Shown here one piece after another: positions 2,108 to 49,832 of a stretch of DNA of 55,133 bases. Source of the stretch: Candidatus Iainarchaeum sp. (GTDB lineage: Archaea; Iainarchaeota; Iainarchaeia; Iainarchaeales; JAFGBZ01); contig JAFGBZ010000021.1 in the NCBI GenBank assembly GCA_016932875.1, positions 1 through 55,133 on the forward strand, written 5' to 3'. The notes under the pieces were generated by a model, which was given only the letters and a program-made list of their open reading frames with translations, did not search any database and was not told the origin of the DNA. A program made the position numbers and the translations under genes. The stretch's first letter is position 1, and each line of letters opens with the position of its first letter.

Positions 2108-3268
2108 TTGAATGACTACCAATCAATTATATTAGGAGCCGGGCCGGCAGGGTGTTTTACTGCATTAAAGCTATCTGAAAAAGGAATTAAAACTGCTTTA
2201 ATTGAAGAGCATTCAGAAATAGGAAGCCCTGTTCACTGCGGAGAATGCTTATCTGAATTTGCAGTAAAAAATCTGAAAATTGAATTGCCTGAAAAAGTTA
2301 TTTCAAAAAACGTGAAAGGAATTAAAGTTATTTTTCCTAACGGAAAAGAATTTTTTACCCATGAAAACGGATATGTTTTAGAAAAAGATTTATTTGAAAA
2401 ATGGATTGCTGAAAAAGCAGAAAAAAAAGGAACTGAAATTTTTCTGAATACAAGAGTTAATGGAATTGAAAAAAAAGAAAAAGGAATTGAATTAAAAACA
2501 AACAAGCATTCTTACACTGCAGATTTTTTAATTGATGGTTCAGGAGTTTCACAGGTTTCTTCAAGACTGCTTGGATTAAACAAGCCAAGCGAAACAGTTA
2601 TTGGAATGCAGTATTTAATGGAAGAAATCCCAAATGAAGGATGGCTTGAATTTTATTTATGGCCTGATTTAGCACCGGAAGGATATTTATGGATTATTCC
2701 TAAAAAAGACGGCAAAGCAAATGTTGGTTTAACAACCACTAATAAAAATCAGGCAAAAAAATTACTGGATAAATTCATTGAAGAAAAAAAACTTGGAAAC
2801 AAAATAGTGAAATCATTCGGAGGATTAATTCCTCATTCAGGGCCGCTGGAAAAAACTTTTGATGAAAGAATTTTACTTATAGGAGATGCAGCAGGATTTA
2901 CTTCGCCAATGTTTGAAGGAGGCTCACAATTAGCAATGAAATCAGCTGAATTCGCTTCAGTTATAGGATTTGAAGCAGTACATAATAATAATTATTCAAA
3001 AGAATTTTTTTCAGCTTATCAAAGAATGTGGAAAAAAGAATTCCCCCCATATGAAAAGCTTTTGAAAGCAAAAAAAGAATTTTATTCACTGAGTTCAAAT
3101 GAATTAAACAAGTTTTCAGAAGACTTGCCCTATAATTTAAGTTCATTGACAAAAAAAGAAAAAGCAATTTATGGATTAAAATTAGCATTAAAGCACCCGC
3201 ATCTAATGCCTAAAATAAAAATGTATGATTCATTCAAATATTCTTTAAGCAAATTTTATGGCTGGTAA
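2108..3268 (+). CDS. Geranylgeranyl reductase family flavoprotein (digeranylgeranylglycerophospholipid reductase-like)
   Basis: FAD fingerprint ILGAGPAGC near the N-terminus, LLIGDAAGFTSP motif, and typical length. The track start is GTG 2099. I prefer TTG 2108 because AGTGA (2098-2102) then sits 5 nt upstream, as at other genes here. Confidence 0.8.
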   Translation: MNDYQSIILGAGPAGCFTALKLSEKGIKTALIEEHSEIGSPVHCGECLSEFAVKNLKIELPEKVISKNVKGIKVIFPNGKEFFTHENGYVLEKDLFEKWIAEKAEKKGTEIFLNTRVNGIEKKEKGIELKTNKHSYTADFLIDGSGVSQVSSRLLGLNKPSETVIGMQYLMEEIPNEGWLEFYLWPDLAPEGYLWIIPKKDGKANVGLTTTNKNQAKKLLDKFIEEKKLGNKIVKSFGGLIPHSGPLEKTFDERILLIGDAAGFTSPMFEGGSQLAMKSAEFASVIGFEAVHNNNYSKEFFSAYQRMWKKEFPPYEKLLKAKKEFYSLSSNELNKFSEDLPYNLSSLTKKEKAIYGLKLALKHPHLMPKIKMYDSFKYSLSKFYGW

Positions 3269-3962
3269 AAAAATGATTACTGAAACAAAAGCAAAAATAA
3301 TTGAAATAAAAGAAGAAGCAAAAGAAATCAGAACATTTACATTACAGTTAGAAAAAAAAATTGATTATAACCCAGGAGAATTTATTTTTGTATGGTTTCC
3401 TGAACAACCTGAAATCAAAAGAGCTTATTCAATTGCAGGTTATTCAAAAGATAATTTAATGAAGCTTACAATTCAAAAAGTGGAAGAAGGAAAATTTACA
3501 ACAGAATTATTTAATGCAAAAAAAGGAAAAGAAATAATTGTTAAAGGTTCTTTTGGAAGCATGAAATATGAAGGAGAAAAAAAAATTGTAATGCTTGCAG
3601 CAGGAACAGGAATTGCTCCGTTTATGGGTTTTATGGATTATTTTAAAACCATGAAATGCCCTGAAAAAGCTTATTTATTTTATTCATTCAAACATCCGAA
3701 TAAAAAAGTTGATTTAACTGAACATTTAAAAGGAATCAAGTGCATGGAAATAATTTTAACCTGTCCTAAAGCAGGAAAAGAATGCATTCAATGGAACGGA
3801 TTAAAGGAATACATTGATGCAAAAGTAATGAAAAGATTTATTCCAAACTTAAATGAATTCACTTTCTTTTTATGCGGTTCACATAAACTAGTTGAAGAAG
3901 TAACAAACACATTAATAGAAGAAGGAATTCCAGAAGAAAAAATCAAGCATGAAAAGTTTTAA
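3258..3962 (+). CDS. FNR-family (ferredoxin-NADP reductase-like / PyrK-like) FAD/NAD(P)-binding oxidoreductase, without an obvious Fe-S tail
   Basis: RAYSIA (RxYS FAD motif), AAGTGIAPF (NAD(P) motif) and FLCGS near the C-terminus. Overlaps the GGR gene by 11 nt. Confidence 0.7.
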   Translation: MAGKKMITETKAKIIEIKEEAKEIRTFTLQLEKKIDYNPGEFIFVWFPEQPEIKRAYSIAGYSKDNLMKLTIQKVEEGKFTTELFNAKKGKEIIVKGSFGSMKYEGEKKIVMLAAGTGIAPFMGFMDYFKTMKCPEKAYLFYSFKHPNKKVDLTEHLKGIKCMEIILTCPKAGKECIQWNGLKEYIDAKVMKRFIPNLNEFTFFLCGSHKLVEEVTNTLIEEGIPEEKIKHEKF

Positions 3963-16891: not shown

Positions 16892-17293
16892 ATGAAATTA
16901 AACCGCGAAGAAATAGAATACCTTAACCTGCTTGAAAAAGAATGCAATCAAAACGCAACAGCATGCGTTATAACAGAAAATGCAGTTGTTTTCTTTGCAG
17001 AAAAAGGAAAAGTCGGAGCAGTGGTAGGAAAAAACGGAGAAAATGCAAAAAAAATGAGTTCATTAATAGGAAAACAAGTAGAAGTATTTGAATACAGCGG
17101 AAACCCAGAAGAATTTGCAAAAAAAGCATTCAATAAAACAGAAGTCGAAGCAAAAGCTTTAAAAAACGCTTTAAGCATTAAATTCGTTTCCGCAGAAGAC
17201 AAAAAAAAAGCATTAATGAATAAAAGAAGAATTTCATTGATTAAAGAGATATTAAATAAATGTTTCGGAATAAAAAAAGTTATGATTAACTAG
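16892..17293 (+). CDS. nusA: Archaeal NusA-like KH-domain protein
   Basis: Two KH-like GxxG segments (VVGKNGENAKKM). About 133 aa, in the canonical position between L30e and S12. Confidence 0.75.
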   Translation: MKLNREEIEYLNLLEKECNQNATACVITENAVVFFAEKGKVGAVVGKNGENAKKMSSLIGKQVEVFEYSGNPEEFAKKAFNKTEVEAKALKNALSIKFVSAEDKKKALMNKRRISLIKEILNKCFGIKKVMIN

Positions 17294-17358
17294 CTTTTCT
17301 TTTAAAAAAAGAAAAGCTAAGTTCGCAAAAGAAAAAGTTTTTTTGCTTCGCAAAAAAG
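17292..17358 (+). repeat. Copy A of a bipartite palindromic element (12-bp perfect hairpin plus tandem GTTCGCAAAAG-type boxes)
   Basis: AGCTTTTCTTTT-AAA-AAAAGAAAAGCT (17292-17318), followed by AAGTTCGCAAAAGAAAAAGTTTTTTTGCTTCGCAAAAAAG. 44 of 46 nt match copy C, and the full length is collinear with copy D. Confidence 0.8.
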
Positions 17359-17400
17359 AAAAAAACTTATAATTAAAATCAGAAAAAAAGGATTGATAAA

Positions 17401-17826
17401 ATGGCTAGTGGAGAATTTGCAGCAGGCTCTTTGGAAAAAAAGAGAAAAAAATGGAATAAAAAAGATCCAAGACAGAAAAAAAAGAAAAAACAAGCAAAGA
17501 AAAAAGACTTGCTTAAAGGAAGCCCTCAAGGAAGAGGAATTGTATTAGAAAAAAGAGGAGTAACTGCAAGACAGCCAAATTCAGGAATAAGAAAATGTGT
17601 TAGAGTTCAATTAATTAAAAACGGAAAGCAGTTAACTGCTTTAGCCCCAAAAGACGGCGCAATAAAATTCATTGAAGAACATGATGAAGTAATGGTTGAA
17701 GGATTAGGCGGAAGAAAACACGGAGCAAAAGGAGATCTTTGGGGAGTAAAATATAAAGTAATTAAAGTGAACAATCAATCACTTGAAATGCTTAGAACAG
17801 GAAGAAAAGAGAAAAGCAAGAGGTAA
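17401..17826 (+). CDS. rps12: Ribosomal protein uS12
   Basis: [35 protein letters not shown]...DEHDEV. Confidence 0.95.
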
Positions 17827-17830
17827 TTCG

Positions 17831-17871
17831 GCTTTCTTTTAAAAAAAGAAAGCACGGTTGCAAAGAAAAAG
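17831..17871 (+). repeat. Copy B (diverged) of the palindromic element
   Basis: GCTTTCTTTT-AAA-AAAAGAAAGC (17831-17853), then GTTGCAAAGAAAAAG (17857-17871). Confidence 0.65.
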
Positions 17872-17931
17872 CAATCCTGCTACGCAGAATTGGAAAGAAA
17901 AAATTGAAATTAAAAGTAAGAGGTAATTAAC

Positions 17932-18531
17932 TTGAAAGTATTTGACAAATGGGAAACAAAAGACGTTAAAATAAATGATATTTCTTTATCAAAATACATT
18001 TCACTGGACACAACAGCAGTGCCTCATTCATTTGGAATCAAAACAAGAAAAAGATTCAAAAAATCAGAAGTAAGCATTGTTGAAAGATTAGTAAACAAAT
18101 TAATGCGTTCAGGACAAGGAAAAAGAAAACTTTCAGGAAAATACATGCGTCATAGATTAGGATGCGGAAAAAAATTCCAGTCAATGGAAATAGTTGAAGA
18201 AGCATTTGATAAAATAGAAAAACAAACAAAACAAAACCCAATTCAAATATTAGTGCAGGCAATAGAAAAATCAGGTCCAAGAGAAGATGTAACAAGAATA
18301 AAAAAAGGCGGAATAAGTTACACTCAATCAGTTGATGTTGCACCAATCAAAAGAATTGATGAATCACTTAAAAATATTGCTTTAGCAACTTTTGCTTCAA
18401 GTTATAAAACAAAAAAAACTGCTTCAATTGCTTTAGCAGAAGAATTAATCAAAGCAGCAAAATCAGATCCAAGCTCAACAGCAATAAAAAGAAGAGACGA
18501 AGTAGAAAGAATTGCAAAAAGCAGCAGATAA
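17932..18531 (+). CDS. rps7: Ribosomal protein uS7
   Basis: VERLVNKLMRSG...GKK and ALAEELIKAA. TTG start 7 nt after GAGGT. Confidence 0.9.
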   Translation: MKVFDKWETKDVKINDISLSKYISLDTTAVPHSFGIKTRKRFKKSEVSIVERLVNKLMRSGQGKRKLSGKYMRHRLGCGKKFQSMEIVEEAFDKIEKQTKQNPIQILVQAIEKSGPREDVTRIKKGGISYTQSVDVAPIKRIDESLKNIALATFASSYKTKKTASIALAEELIKAAKSDPSSTAIKRRDEVERIAKSSR

Positions 18532-25345: not shown

Positions 25346-26779
25346 ATGAGTGAATTAAATCAACTAGAGGGATTTGTCTGGGAAATGCCTAAAGAAGGAA
25401 ACATGAATGTTCCTGCAAGATTATATGTTGATAAAGAAATGATTGAAACATTAAAAGAAGAAGAAAAAACTAATTGGAGCACTTTAAGGCAGTTAAGGAA
25501 TGTTGCTTCTTTGCAGGGAATCCAAAAACATGCAATAGCTCTTTCAGACTGTCACCCTGGTTATGGCGCTCCAATAGGAGGAGTTGCTGCATTTGATTTA
25601 ATGGAAGGATTAATCACGTTTGGAATTGTTGGATTTGATATTAATTGCGGAGTCAGAACTTTAAGAACTAATTTAACTTCTGATGAAATTAATTCAAAGA
25701 AAAAAGAATTAAGTGAAGCTTTATTCAATGAAATTCCTGCTGGATTAGGAGTGAAAGGAAAGCTTGAATTAAAGCCAAATGAAATTGATGAATTATTAGA
25801 AAAAGGCGCTGAATATGTTGTTGAAAAAGGATTTGGATTGAAAAATGATTTAGAATTTATTGAAGAAAAAGGATGCGTTAAAGGAGCTAATCCTGAAAAT
25901 GTTTCAATGAAAGCAAAGCAAAGACAATTCAAGCAAATTGGAACTCTGGGTTCAGGAAATCATTATCTTGAAGTGCAGGAAGTTGAAGAAATATTTGATG
26001 AAAAAACAGCTAAAGCATTTGGATTAAAAGAAAAAGAATGTGTTGTTTCAATTCATTGCGGTTCACGCGCTTTAGGACATCAAATTGGAACAGATTATTT
26101 AGAGTTTCTTGAAAAAGCAGCAAAAAAATATAAAATTAAAATTCCTGATAAAGAATTAGTTTGCGCTCCAATTCAATCAAAAGAAGGACAAAAATATTTT
26201 TCAGCAGTGAATGCAGGAATTAATTGTGCTTTTGCAAATAGGCAGATGTTAACGCATTTAACAAGAACTGTTTTTTCAAAAGTTTTTGAACTCGAAGAAA
26301 AACAAATTCAAACTCTTTATGATGTAGGACATAATACTGCTAAAATTGAAAAACATGAAGGAAAAAAATTATTAGTGCAAAGAAAAGGTGCAACAAGAGG
26401 ATTTGGAGCAGGAAGAGAAGAAATTCCTGAAAAATACCGCGCATTTGGACAGCCTGTTTTAATTGGCGGAAGCATGGGAACAAATTCATTTATTTTAAGC
26501 GGAACTGAAAAAGCAATGCATGAAACTTTTGGTTCAACAATTCATGGGGCAGGTAGAAGCAAGTCAAGGGTTGCAGCAAAAAAAGAAGTTAATGCAGAAA
26601 ATGTTATTGAATCGCTTAACAGAAAAGGAATTATTGTTAAAGGACATTCAATGAAAGGGATTGAAGAAGAAGCACCTTCAGCTTACAAAAATATTCTTGA
26701 AGTAGTTGAAGTAGTGCATAAAACAGGAATAAGCAAAAAAACAGTTAAATTAAAACCATTAATCTGCATTAAAGGATAA
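25346..26779 (+). CDS. rtcB: RNA 3'-phosphate/5'-OH ligase RtcB (tRNA-splicing ligase)
   Basis: DCHPGYGAPIGGV, FDINCGVR, GSGNHYLEVQ, HCGSRALGHQ, HNTA and HGAGR motifs. No intein. Confidence 0.95.
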   Translation: MSELNQLEGFVWEMPKEGNMNVPARLYVDKEMIETLKEEEKTNWSTLRQLRNVASLQGIQKHAIALSDCHPGYGAPIGGVAAFDLMEGLITFGIVGFDINCGVRTLRTNLTSDEINSKKKELSEALFNEIPAGLGVKGKLELKPNEIDELLEKGAEYVVEKGFGLKNDLEFIEEKGCVKGANPENVSMKAKQRQFKQIGTLGSGNHYLEVQEVEEIFDEKTAKAFGLKEKECVVSIHCGSRALGHQIGTDYLEFLEKAAKKYKIKIPDKELVCAPIQSKEGQKYFSAVNAGINCAFANRQMLTHLTRTVFSKVFELEEKQIQTLYDVGHNTAKIEKHEGKKLLVQRKGATRGFGAGREEIPEKYRAFGQPVLIGGSMGTNSFILSGTEKAMHETFGSTIHGAGRSKSRVAAKKEVNAENVIESLNRKGIIVKGHSMKGIEEEAPSAYKNILEVVEVVHKTGISKKTVKLKPLICIKG

Positions 26780-38657: not shown

Positions 38658-39200
38658 GTGAAAACAGAAAAAGAAATCATAATAGAACTTCCTTCAGGAG
38701 TAACCGGAGAAATACAGGATAAAAAAGTAACTCTTACAGGAAACGGAAAAACTGTTTCAAAACAGTTCAAAGCAACAACCATTCAGTTAAGCATTGAAGG
38801 AAACAAAGTAAAAATTTATTCAGCAATCACCAACAGAAAAATAAATGCAGTAATGAATGCATTTGACTCACATATAAAAAATTTAATCAACGGACTAAAA
38901 GAAGAATATGTTTACAAAATGGAAATAGTTTACTCTCACTTTCCAATGACTGTTGCAATAAAAGGAAAAGAAGTTGAAATAAATAATCTTGCAGGAGCAA
39001 AAAGTCCAAGAAAAGCAAAAATAAAAGGAAATACTAAAGTTGAAGTAAAAGGAAAAGATGTAACAGTTAAAGGAAACAATAAAGAAGAAACCGGTCAGAC
39101 AGCAGCCAATATTGAAAATGCTACAAAAATAAGAGGCCGAGACATAAGGGTTTTCCAAGATGGAATATACATTACTGAAAAACCAACAAAGGCAGTGTGA
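38658..39200 (+). CDS. rpl6: Ribosomal protein uL6
   Basis: ELPSGVTGEIQDKKVTLTGNGKTVSKQF and YSHFPMTV. GTG start behind GGTGAAATAA. Confidence 0.9.
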   Translation: MKTEKEIIIELPSGVTGEIQDKKVTLTGNGKTVSKQFKATTIQLSIEGNKVKIYSAITNRKINAVMNAFDSHIKNLINGLKEEYVYKMEIVYSHFPMTVAIKGKEVEINNLAGAKSPRKAKIKGNTKVEVKGKDVTVKGNNKEETGQTAANIENATKIRGRDIRVFQDGIYITEKPTKAV

Positions 39201-47264: not shown

Positions 47265-47442
47265 GCGGAGGTACCCAAGCGGTCAACGGGGCAGGACTTA
47301 AGCGAGCTTTTCTTTTAAAAAAAGAAAAGCTACGTTCGCAAAAGAAAAAATTTAAAAAAAAGAACGTCAGGGAAAAATTAGGACCCTTGAGAAGAGATCC
47401 TGTGGCTTAGTGCCTTCGGGAGTTCAAATCTTCCCCTCCGCA
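47265..47442 (+). tRNA. tRNA-Leu (anticodon UAA) with a 94-nt intron at the canonical 37/38 position (intron 47303-47396)
   Basis: Hand-folded. Acceptor GCGGAGG/CCTCCGC plus discriminator A. D-arm CCC..GGG. Anticodon stem CAGGA/TCCTG with loop CT-TAA-G[intron]A. Long variable arm TGGCTTAGTGCCTTC. T-arm GGGAG-TTCAAAT-CTTCC. No encoded CCA. Confidence 0.85.
47305..47350 (+). repeat. Copy C of the palindromic element, inside the tRNA-Leu intron
   Basis: AGCTTTTCTTTT-AAA-AAAAGAAAAGCT (47305-47331, identical to copy A), then ACGTTCGCAAAAGAAAAAA. Begins 2 nt after the 5' splice site. Confidence 0.85.
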
Positions 47443-47445
47443 TCG

Positions 47446-47509
47446 AGCTTTCTTTTAGAAAAAGAAAGCTACGTTCGCAAAGAAAAAAGTTTTTTGCTTT
47501 GCAAAAAAG
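47446..47509 (+). repeat. Copy D of the palindromic element, 3 nt after the tRNA-Leu 3' end
   Basis: AGCTTTCTTTT-AGA-AAAAGAAAGCT (47446-47470), then ACGTTCGCAAAGAAAAAAGTTTTTTGCTTTGCAAAAAAG. A further GTTGCAAGAAAAGAAG box lies at 47529-47544. Confidence 0.8.
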
Positions 47510-49660: not shown

Positions 49661-49703
49661 CACCCGTCACGTCGGGCGATGGACATACTCTCCGAGCACA
49701 AGT

Positions 49704-49754
49704 GCACTGCTTCAGCAGTGCTTAATTAATTCCGCTTAACTTTTTTTATTTTTT
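49704..49754 (+). terminator. GC-rich 7-bp hairpin followed by T7 and T6 tracts after rps2
   Basis: GCACTGC-TTCA-GCAGTGC (49704-49721), then ...CTTAACTTTTTTTATTTTTT. Confidence 0.5.
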
Positions 49755-49832
49755 CAATTGCATTAACTGCTTCGCACCGGCAATTTACTCTCCAAATCTT
49801 TAAAAAGTACTCAAACCTTATTCTTCTGGTGG

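Follow-up and report, generated by a model that had tools for sequence, protein, structure and literature searches.

A structured repeat at ribosomal protein gene junctions and in a tRNA gene of Candidatus Iainarchaeum: a probable small mobile element with a mirror-repeat, triplex-like module

REP/BIME sequences (repetitive extragenic palindromes and bacterial interspersed mosaic elements) and Correia-type repeats are structured repeats that lie between cistrons, are co-transcribed with them and can alter mRNA stability or processing without being essential. REPs have a REP-associated tyrosine (RAYT) transposase, Correia repeats have inverted terminal repeats and a TA duplication, and neither kind is triplex-type. 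Here we describe a structured repeat that is likewise inserted between cistrons and differs from these elements in its putative triplex-type fold. It was found in a 55,133-nucleotide (nt) stretch of DNA of Candidatus Iainarchaeum sp. (GenBank assembly GCA_016932875.1, contig JAFGBZ010000021.1, positions 1 to 55,133 of the forward strand; hereafter the window), where copies A and B occupy two adjacent gene junctions, nusA/S12 and S12/S7, and copies C and D belong to a tRNA-Leu(UAA) locus. Copies A and B are probably recent insertions of a small non-coding, non-autonomous mobile repeat that has no terminal inverted repeats.

Potential intrastrand triplex (PIT) elements, such as BoxC and TM_ECO of enterobacteria and cyanobacteria, carry the same succession of blocks on one strand, i.e., pyrimidine, purine and mirror purine (class II, the complement being class IV) (Hoyne and Maher 2000; Holder et al. 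2015, PMC4666352). Their copy number differs between close strains and is linked to genomic instability (PMC4666352). The repeat resembles them in being multi-copy and intergenic, with conserved stems and variable loops. Unlike the G/C-rich PIT elements, it is A/T-rich (A.A-T with one G.G-C), resides in DPANN hosts, has a second loop of 6-11 nt (the ITxF limit is 6) and a second covarying hairpin, can be flanked by 17-18 bp target duplications, and occurs in tRNA introns and 3' flanks with fixed orientation. The likeness rests on sequence: triplex formation by TM_ECO was tested physically, and here it is read from covariation.

For the tRNA introns of Thermoproteales, the account of Fujishima et al. 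2010, as relayed in PMC4090602, presumes transposition at the DNA level; how such introns pass from one archaeal tRNA gene to another has remained an open question ever since, the mechanism being described as unknown (PMC4090602). The locus pairs L047/L068 and L007/L105 of the present family (loci in other assemblies are cited by our own numbers) resemble that transposition. The difference from the Thermoproteales case, as far as it is described there, is that the same sequence also occurs outside tRNA genes, in fresh insertions with target duplications, and that the introns concerned, at 58-190 nt, are long and have a structured module in common. Insertions that lie outside tRNA genes and carry duplications provide direct evidence for a DNA-level insertion step.

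With miniature inverted-repeat transposable elements (MITEs) the repeat shares its small size, non-coding nature, multiple copies, presence/absence polymorphism, target duplication, strong structure and frequent position between operon genes. It is not a MITE in the strict sense, because it lacks terminal inverted repeats; a different hairpin stands at each end, the duplication is long (17-18 bp, once 46-49 bp), and no parent insertion sequence (IS) is known. An initial annotation of the window had proposed four candidate roles: a combined terminator/promoter unit, an RNA processing or stability signal, a protein-binding site and a small MITE-like mobile repeat. The last of these is the best one, with duplications flush against the element, apart from the missing inverted repeats.

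The window contains the gene order rpoB-rpoA1-rpoA2-L30e-nusA-S12-S7 and large ribosomal protein operons; its G+C content is 30.7%, and A-runs are many. Nearly all junctions in these operons measure 0-15 nt. Two are conspicuously longer: nusA/S12, where nusA ends at 17293 and S12 starts at 17401 (spacer 17294-17400, 107 nt), and S12/S7, where S12 ends at 17826 and S7 starts at 17932 (spacer 17827-17931, 105 nt). The gene coordinates thus confirm the spacer lengths given initially, and the perfect hairpins reported at 17292-17318 and 17831-17853 are present. The claim of one element at both junctions, with four copies in all, agrees with a covariance model of the core, which was built from family copies and run on the window and on DPANN loci: in the window it finds these four copies only (90, 76, 66 and 66 bits). 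Copies A and B comprise the following features.

17272-17289, forward strand: left target duplication of copy A, AAAAAAAGTTATGATTAA, final nusA codons, flush with the 5' end of the element
17290-17358, forward strand: copy A core, 69 nt, consisting of CTA, hairpin 1, spacer, box and hairpin 2; 90.3 bits
17292-17318, forward strand: copy A hairpin 1, AGCTTTTCTTTT-AAA-AAAAGAAAAGCT, a perfect 12-bp stem with a pyrimidine 5' arm and a purine 3' arm
17325-17337, forward strand: copy A box, GCAAAAGAAAAAG, which mirrors the purine arm AAAAGAAAAGC and is the putative third strand
17338-17358, forward strand: copy A hairpin 2, TTTTTTTGC-TTC-GCAAAAAAG
17359-17376, forward strand: right target duplication of copy A, AAAAAAACTTATAATTAA, 16/18, flush with the end of hairpin 2
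17812-17828, forward strand: left target duplication of copy B, AAAAGCAAGAGGTAATT, with S12 C-terminal codons, the stop and the S7 Shine-Dalgarno sequence
17829-17892, forward strand: copy B core, 64 nt; 66 bits in the covariance model
17831-17853, forward strand: copy B hairpin 1, GCTTTCTTTT-AAA-AAAAGAAAGC
17860-17871, forward strand: copy B box
17872-17892, forward strand: copy B hairpin 2, CAATCCTGC-TAC-GCAGAATTG
17912-17928, forward strand: right target duplication of copy B, AAAAGTAAGAGGTAATT, 16/17, 11 perfect

All relatives used for comparison are metagenome assemblies. Insertion into originally tight junctions, as suggested at the outset, is supported by them, since orthologous junctions without the repeat occur among them. 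In L002, a Joint Genome Institute (JGI) contig, the S12 protein is identical, the S12 gene is 98.6% identical at the nucleotide level, and both junctions are empty: nusA/S12 reads nusA-TAA-aaggattgataaa-ATG (13 nt), and S12/S7 reads gaggTAAttaacTTG (5 nt). The S12/S7 junction also has 5 nt in L240, L241, L242, L243 and L244, relatives identified via S7 (81-86% identity). The nusA and S12 genes overlap in L242 and are 15 nt apart in L243; copy A is absent from L002, L242 and L243.

The flanks of both copies were compared with a control in which every window position was scored with the same geometry, the true site being included in the counts. Flank pairs as good as those of copy A occur at 5/55028 positions, and as good as those of copy B at 1/55010, i.e., at the true site alone. 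The only other match in this control is a pair of direct repeats (at least 16/18, 87 nt apart) at 38952-39062 in the ribosomal protein gene at 38658-39200. The CTAG of copy A contributes the base that completes the final nusA codon, together with a TAG stop, and in this way re-creates the Asn codon and the stop of nusA. The right duplication of copy B re-creates the S12 stop and the S7 Shine-Dalgarno sequence GAGGT, which in relatives lies inside the last S12 codons; the 19 nt (17893-17911) between hairpin 2 of copy B and this duplication are of unassigned origin.

Two further insertions come from relatives. The copy at 775-844 of L080 (Iainarchaeum metagenome-assembled genome (MAG) JBDRGO01) has a perfect 18/18 target duplication, AAACAATACCTTTTAATT. 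In L240 (GCA_054474055.1), a 64-nt element at 1078-1141 sits within the S12 start and is flanked by a 46/49-nt duplication, which scores 42 against a shuffle maximum of 18 and re-creates the S12 Shine-Dalgarno sequence, the ATG and six codons. Duplications seen by eye at copy C and at the introns of L080 and L081 were dropped, as they did not exceed shuffles. Judged from these flanks, insertion evidently duplicates about 17-18 bp of the target, and 46-49 bp in one relative; the insertions that survive are apparently those in which the interrupted sequence is made good by the duplication or by the element.

Two details of L240 deserve mention in their own right. The duplicated S12 start and the element together form a 38-codon upstream open reading frame (ORF) at 1053-1172. 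Its TAA shares bases with the true S12 ATG (TAATG), an arrangement by which translation might be coupled. A degenerate hairpin, CAACTTTTT-AGA-AAAAAGTTG, with an A-run behind it, occupies 976-1030, after the nusA stop and before the insertion; possibly it is an earlier copy, in which case this junction would have been hit more than once.

Copy B is also contained in an independent assembly of the population from which the window derives (Logan SRR13394437). Contigs L001, L003 and L004 of that assembly stop inside copy A (from both sides) or 151 nt before L18e, the latter point being the tRNA-Leu 3' exon just upstream of copy D. The contigs probably end there because the sequence is repeated, which fits its multi-copy nature.

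The cases flanked by duplications (A, B, L080 and L240) set the limits of the element, from C-N-R-GC to the end of hairpin 2. The core thus begins with C-N-R-GC, ends with the final base of hairpin 2, measures 64-70 nt and contains no ORF. In a full copy the order is C-N-R (two to four bases), hairpin 1, a spacer of 6-8 nt, the box and hairpin 2. The consensus of hairpin 1 is GC-T3-4-C-T4, a 3-nt loop and A4-G-A3-4-GC, and that of the box is GC-A3-4-G-A5-6. Loops of hairpin 1 in other copies include CAG, TGG and GCG, so that the TATA-like loop remarked upon initially is not general. The core ends CTAGC/CGGC... were compared with ...GCAAAAAAG/...GCAGAATTG and are not reverse complements, i.e., the core has no terminal inverted repeats.

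The second hairpin first proposed for copy A is a pairing of the box with the T-run. Minimum-free-energy (MFE) folding of the single sequence does pick this pairing; the better-supported structure is hairpin 2 as listed above. In 10 copies of the Iainarchaeial subfamily analyzed with RNAalifold, hairpin 2 has compensatory double changes at 9/9 pairs, with the variants CAATTCTGC/GCAGAATTG, CTTTTTTGC/GCAAAAAAG, CTTTTCGC/GCGAAAAG and GAAATTCA/TGAATTTC; its tip is mostly GC-TTY-GC. The compensated indel in the hairpin 1 stem, from which selection on the structure had been argued, is real, and the length of the box changes along with the stem; the covariation of stem and box, together with hairpin 2, upholds that argument. 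Predicted folding energies of -21 and -19 kcal/mol (z of -2.6 and -2.8) indicate stable structures. A MAFFT alignment of 41 hairpin-plus-box copies misregistered short against long stems and was left out of the covariance model.

Other searches of the window gave the same picture. The 25-mer core of the hairpin is found at 17293 and 47306, with 0.00 occurrences expected from 100 shuffles. The box pattern has 8 matches (1.8 expected), the top three being copies A, C and D, and a repeat search places A, C and D in one family, A and C being 96% identical over 49 nt. Rfam searches of the window and 18 loci at gathering scores matched only rRNA, tRNA and RNase P, leaving the element without a family, and at E<=10 both regions and the 18 loci gave chance-level matches only. 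A C/D-box small RNA, a kink-turn (K-turn) and a pseudoknot were rejected: the cores are without C/D boxes, and a variable 3-nt loop cannot form a second stem. A bacterial-type intrinsic terminator does not agree with two A/T-rich hairpins followed by A-rich sequence instead of a T-run.

A scan of species-representative genomes with the hairpin pattern yielded at least 116 loci, and the covariance model found further copies in many DPANN loci. Among the matches listed, to which the counts of this paragraph refer, an A-rich box lies just 3' of the hairpin at 45/52 archaeal and 27/68 bacterial sites. The archaeal hosts are DPANN from at least five named groups: Iainarchaeia/Diapherotrites, Micrarchaeota including Norongarragalinales, Aenigmatarchaeota, Nanoarchaeota and Woesearchaeota. 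tRNA genes were called by ARAGORN, with default settings and with introns allowed up to 300 nt. Linkage to tRNA genes was found for 32 of the 45 archaeal copies, 31 of them in the tRNA sense: 9 copies lie in canonical introns called by ARAGORN, 8 start 1-7 nt past a tRNA 3' end, and about 15 further ones are located in T-loop, D-loop or uncalled canonical introns, as read from their flanks. The sole reversed copy, in L013, belongs to a tRNA-Leu(UAA) intron and lies directly at its 3' splice site. In L074 the module stands directly after 16S rRNA (2022), tRNA-Ala and RNase P RNA (6671). The family is thus found in tRNA introns, in the 3' flanks of tRNA, 16S rRNA and RNase P RNA genes and in spacers after stop codons, in many DPANN. 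Cores of the window and of JBDRGO01 are 93-97% identical, the S7 proteins being 81% identical.

About 800 nt separate tRNA-Ala from 23S rRNA in L074, with two apparent small hydrophobic ORFs (2440-2970); the 16S-tRNA-Ala unit and 23S may be separate operons. A metagenome scan with AAAGCTAMGTTCGCAAA gave 117 matches, all of them by chance and with the hairpin absent. Viral contigs scanned with the hairpin pattern gave 1 match, which has no box, and nothing pointing to a viral origin.

The box mirrors the purine arm and changes with it. Among the exact-pattern matches listed, the long stem A4-G-A4-GC is accompanied by a C-A4-G-A4+ box in 27/28 copies, and the short stem A4-G-A3-GC by a C-A3-G-A4+ box in 43/43. 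Diverged arms have diverged boxes: A5GA4 has A4GA5, A2GA5 has A5GA2, A2GA4 has A4GA2, A3GA4 has A4GA3, A3GA6 has A6GA3, A5GA3 has A3GA5, A3GA5 has A5GA3 and A5GA has AGA5. A bacterium of the Candidate Phyla Radiation (CPR) has the arm AAAAAAGAGAA with the box AAGAGAAAAAA, and L240 adds the tenth arm type (A4GA2 with A2GA5). For asymmetric arms (9 arm types), a blind count up to 28 nt downstream gave 36 exact mirrors and 3 direct copies, with 0 mirrors upstream; at bacterial loci with asymmetric arms the count was 21 mirror vs 0 direct. Alternative Watson-Crick pairing of the box with the 5' arm was rejected, since it would need a direct copy.

A mirror box suits a third strand antiparallel to the purine arm, and such covariation marks, at the level of sequence, an intrastrand triple helix rather than Watson-Crick pairing. 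The blocks follow the order pyrimidine, purine, mirror purine, with 8-11 nt each against a minimum stem of 8 nt for this motif class, an exact mirror and 9-10 covarying types; loop 1 has 3 nt, and loop 2 has 6-11 nt. Published limits for loops are 1-6 nt (ITxF) and 0-10 nt (Hoyne and Maher) (PMC4666352); loop 2 exceeds the former and mostly stays inside the older latter one. In the terms of PMC4666352, the sense strand is a candidate class II purine-motif intrastrand triplex, and the bottom strand a candidate class IV pyrimidine-motif triplex (T.A-T or U.A-U with one C+.G-C). RNA is reported to form the pyrimidine-motif triplex and not the purine-motif one (PMC4666352). Most mismatches beside hairpin 1 read A.C or C.A on the sense strand and G.U on the antisense strand, and the latter folds better in 31/45 copies, by 1.6 kcal/mol on average, the copies not being independent of each other. 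Fold energies and mismatches are thus a weak hint that the bottom strand is the one that folds. What the family conserves appears to be the fold, a perfect pyrimidine:purine hairpin with a mirror purine box, and not an ORF.

The ENE-type RNA triple helices of MALAT1 and PAN (ENE, element for nuclear expression) follow an ENE+A logic and lie beside tRNA or tRNA-like structures. Read on its bottom strand, the module resembles them in the succession of a Hoogsteen U-rich, a Watson-Crick U-rich and an A-rich block, with one C+.G-C among U.A-U. The difference is that the transcribed strand here is nearly always the other one, with one U-rich and two A-rich blocks; we know of no RNA in which this arrangement forms.

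Outside DPANN, the hairpin with its mirror box was observed in Chitinophagaceae, within a larger multi-copy unit (L006, L088 and L100 from one Ilyomonas genome, as well as L012, L025, L028, L045, L049, L054 and L066). This unit is preceded by a gene end resembling a MutS mismatch-binding motif (..VKAGYRxAxCEP), and a conserved block, TCATTTATTCTGCTACAAAGTTAGCC...GCTGCTGAAGCGGCAAGGGAATTTCCGGCATAAACC, lies about 100 nt downstream. At 96-190 of L053 (Paceibacterota, CPR) there are two tandem triplex-type modules, the second with a two-G arm and an exact 11-nt mirror box.

The other two copies of the window are located at the tRNA-Leu gene, as the initial annotation had stated. C lies inside the intron and D right after the tRNA.

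47265-47442, forward strand: tRNA-Leu(UAA), exons 47265-47302 and 47397-47442, intron 47303-47396 (94 nt) after position 37
47303-47352, forward strand: copy C, hairpin 1 at 47305-47331, box at 47338-47350, no hairpin 2; 65.9 bits
47443-47509, forward strand: copy D, 67 nt, hairpin 1 at 47446-47470, box at 47477-47489, hairpin 2 at 47490-47508; 76.3 bits

The gene is missed by default ARAGORN and by the Rfam gathering score and is found by ARAGORN with introns allowed; with the 94-nt intron removed, its exons make a complete cloverleaf. Copy C forms the 5' part of the intron and is 94% identical to A; copy and intron start with the same base, so that C begins precisely at the 5' splice site. 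This position, the mirror box and the widespread family are absent from the initial annotation. Copy D starts one nt past the discriminator base of the tRNA and is 97% identical to the intron copy of L065; no target duplication was detectable in its flanks. L065, an Iainarchaeum MAG, has a tRNA-Tyr with one copy in the intron and one just 3' of the gene (3181-3253 and 3343-3417), an arrangement like that of C and D.

When the splice sites of tRNA-Leu are folded by hand, C32-U34 pair with the GAA at the intron end, followed by an A.G pair. Against a standard of two 3-nt bulges and a 4-bp helix, the resulting candidate bulge-helix-bulge (BHB) motif is of a relaxed form, with the 3' bulge AG|A and the inner helix CGAG/CUUG, which includes one G.U; the MFE fold pairs this region differently. 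The window also encodes the tRNA-splicing ligase RtcB (a 477-amino-acid ORF, 25346-26779, Pfam E 7e-163), which sits between the EF-1alpha region and the ribosomal operons. The relative L121 (L18e 62% identical) has the same order rpoD-tRNA-Leu(UAA)-L18e, with copy D absent; its tRNA-Leu intron, 61 nt according to ARAGORN, contains a mini-module closed by a fair BHB, better than that of the window. A split-tRNA reading of the intron, as a terminator with an internal promoter, was considered and is speculation only.

Several observations weigh against recent insertion of a mobile repeat. Target duplications accompany 4/50 copies of the covariance model, leaving 46 without a detectable one, and a comparison of the 5' exon end with the intron 3' end in 11 tRNA genes revealed no decayed duplications above shuffles. 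Copy A is untidy, with 7 nt past its right duplication that have no counterpart at the empty site of L002. An 18-bp stagger together with one case of 46-49 bp fits none of the transposase families tested, the core has no terminal inverted repeats, and Pfam searches of 10 non-ribosomal ORFs of the window showed no transposase, integrase or reverse transcriptase. Derivation from IS200/IS605 (of the PATE or REP-like kind) was considered separately; such elements have subterminal hairpins, make no target duplication and insert beside a fixed target of 4-5 nt. In the repeat, end hairpins are present, but the duplications of 17-18 bp and the differing left flanks TTAA, AATT and ATTT do not agree with it. 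The purine motif that the sense strand would adopt is reported not to form in RNA (PMC4666352). Finally, the high conservation across distant genomes, the near-constant sense orientation and the placement right after stable-RNA 3' ends also fit a function for the host.

Such a function would be that of a cis-acting module through which highly expressed RNAs form their 3' ends, are processed or are kept stable, serving behind tRNA, 16S rRNA and RNase P RNA, behind stop codons and at the ends of exons; spread by insertion would be secondary, as in REP/BIME or Correia elements that act on mRNA decay. It is the main rival, and we consider it unlikely as the explanation of copies A and B, even if much can be said for it: modules start 0-7 nt after the mature 3' ends of tRNA-Gly, Trp, Ala, Pro, Arg and Leu, 16S rRNA and RNase P RNA, or 3-6 nt past 5' splice sites; 31/32 tRNA-linked copies are in sense; the module is present in each of the tRNA-Leu(UAA) introns of the window, L121 and L013; and its cores keep their identity of 93-97% across diverged genomes along with their stable folds. 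On the other hand, the same essential operon lacks the module in six related contigs, where it is therefore dispensable, target duplications flank insertions, one intron copy is inverted (L013), no Rfam family corresponds to the module, and no part in RNA processing is known for a box that is a mirror image. Mobile repeats can be functional as well, while host function leaves the empty sites in an essential operon unexplained.

Oligo-T is the archaeal termination signal, and the T-rich arms of the element (T4CT4 in hairpin 1; T7 in A and T6 in D in hairpin 2) might stop RNA polymerase, with the A/T-rich 3' part restarting transcription for S12, S7 and L18e. TATA-like stretches after the core in A, B and D, the equal 43-nt spacing in A and D, and the L074 module that leads from tRNA-Ala into small ORFs, not directly into 23S, speak for such a terminator/promoter cassette, which we nevertheless regard as improbable. 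It is difficult to square with the copies that lie in tRNA introns, since a stop there would do away with the tRNA; most hairpin loops are not TATA-like, the T-run of hairpin 2 is absent in B and its closest relatives, and relatives run the operon with junctions of 5-15 nt. The arithmetic behind the spacing is right (17358+43=17401, 47509+43=47552), but the conserved leader or promoter cassette deduced from it is not supported. In A, the first 18/42 nt, including the TATA-like stretch, are the duplicated nusA 3' end, and the final 16 nt ahead of the ATG belong to the host, being identical in L002 at its empty site; in D, the stretch opens with GAATTAAAAAA, which also precedes L18e in L121, where copy D is missing. 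Still less credit is due to an operator, a palindromic DNA or RNA site for a protein co-regulating ribosomal protein operons and tRNA genes. The palindrome is perfect, it is located before S12, S7 and L18e, and the S12-S7 spacer is the site of S7 autoregulation in E. coli; yet close relatives miss the site, most family members lie in tRNA introns or in flanks of unrelated genes, some of them bacterial, and dimeric proteins do not read mirror repeats. Chance, to which a window of 30.7% G+C rich in A-runs might lend itself, is already refuted by the shuffle expectation of 0.00, four copies scoring 66-90 bits, covariation in two helices and the box, and recurrence of the same element elsewhere at 93-97% identity.

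If copies A and B are insertions of a mobile repeat, transcribed non-coding niches would tolerate it without harm, and in tRNA genes BHB splicing would remove the inserted element. The triplex-capable module may be recognised by mobility machinery or by a template-switching polymerase, and the folded strand would more likely be the pyrimidine-rich bottom strand. The duplication could also arise by template switching of a polymerase at a structure-forming donor. Copies in the present operon would be neutral or would, at most, add stable hairpins to the polycistronic mRNA. A more far-reaching proposal, possible but doubtful, is that the family is a DNA-level vehicle of archaeal tRNA intron gain, an "archaeal introner": it would insert with an approximately 18-bp duplication, be rescued in tRNA genes by the broad-specificity splicing endonuclease, form a genuine intramolecular triplex used by insertion machinery or a stalled polymerase, and share its module with CPR and other bacteria.

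One family is thus seen in two states, as tRNA introns and as fresh duplication-flanked insertions between protein genes, which makes the insertion step directly testable. Evolutionary support for intrastrand triplex repeats has so far been scant and no function of theirs is known, and ten arm types, each with a matching mirror box, constitute unusually clean natural covariation for a three-stranded fold. For annotation, the element accounts for oversized junctions in tight ribosomal operons and for tRNA genes that default finders miss. Apart from the repeat, the window has a 172-nt spacer at 49661-49832 that gives no Rfam match at E<=1, is G+C-richer by eye and contains the hairpins cacccgtcacgtcgggcg... 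and gcactgcttcagcagtgc and a T-run.

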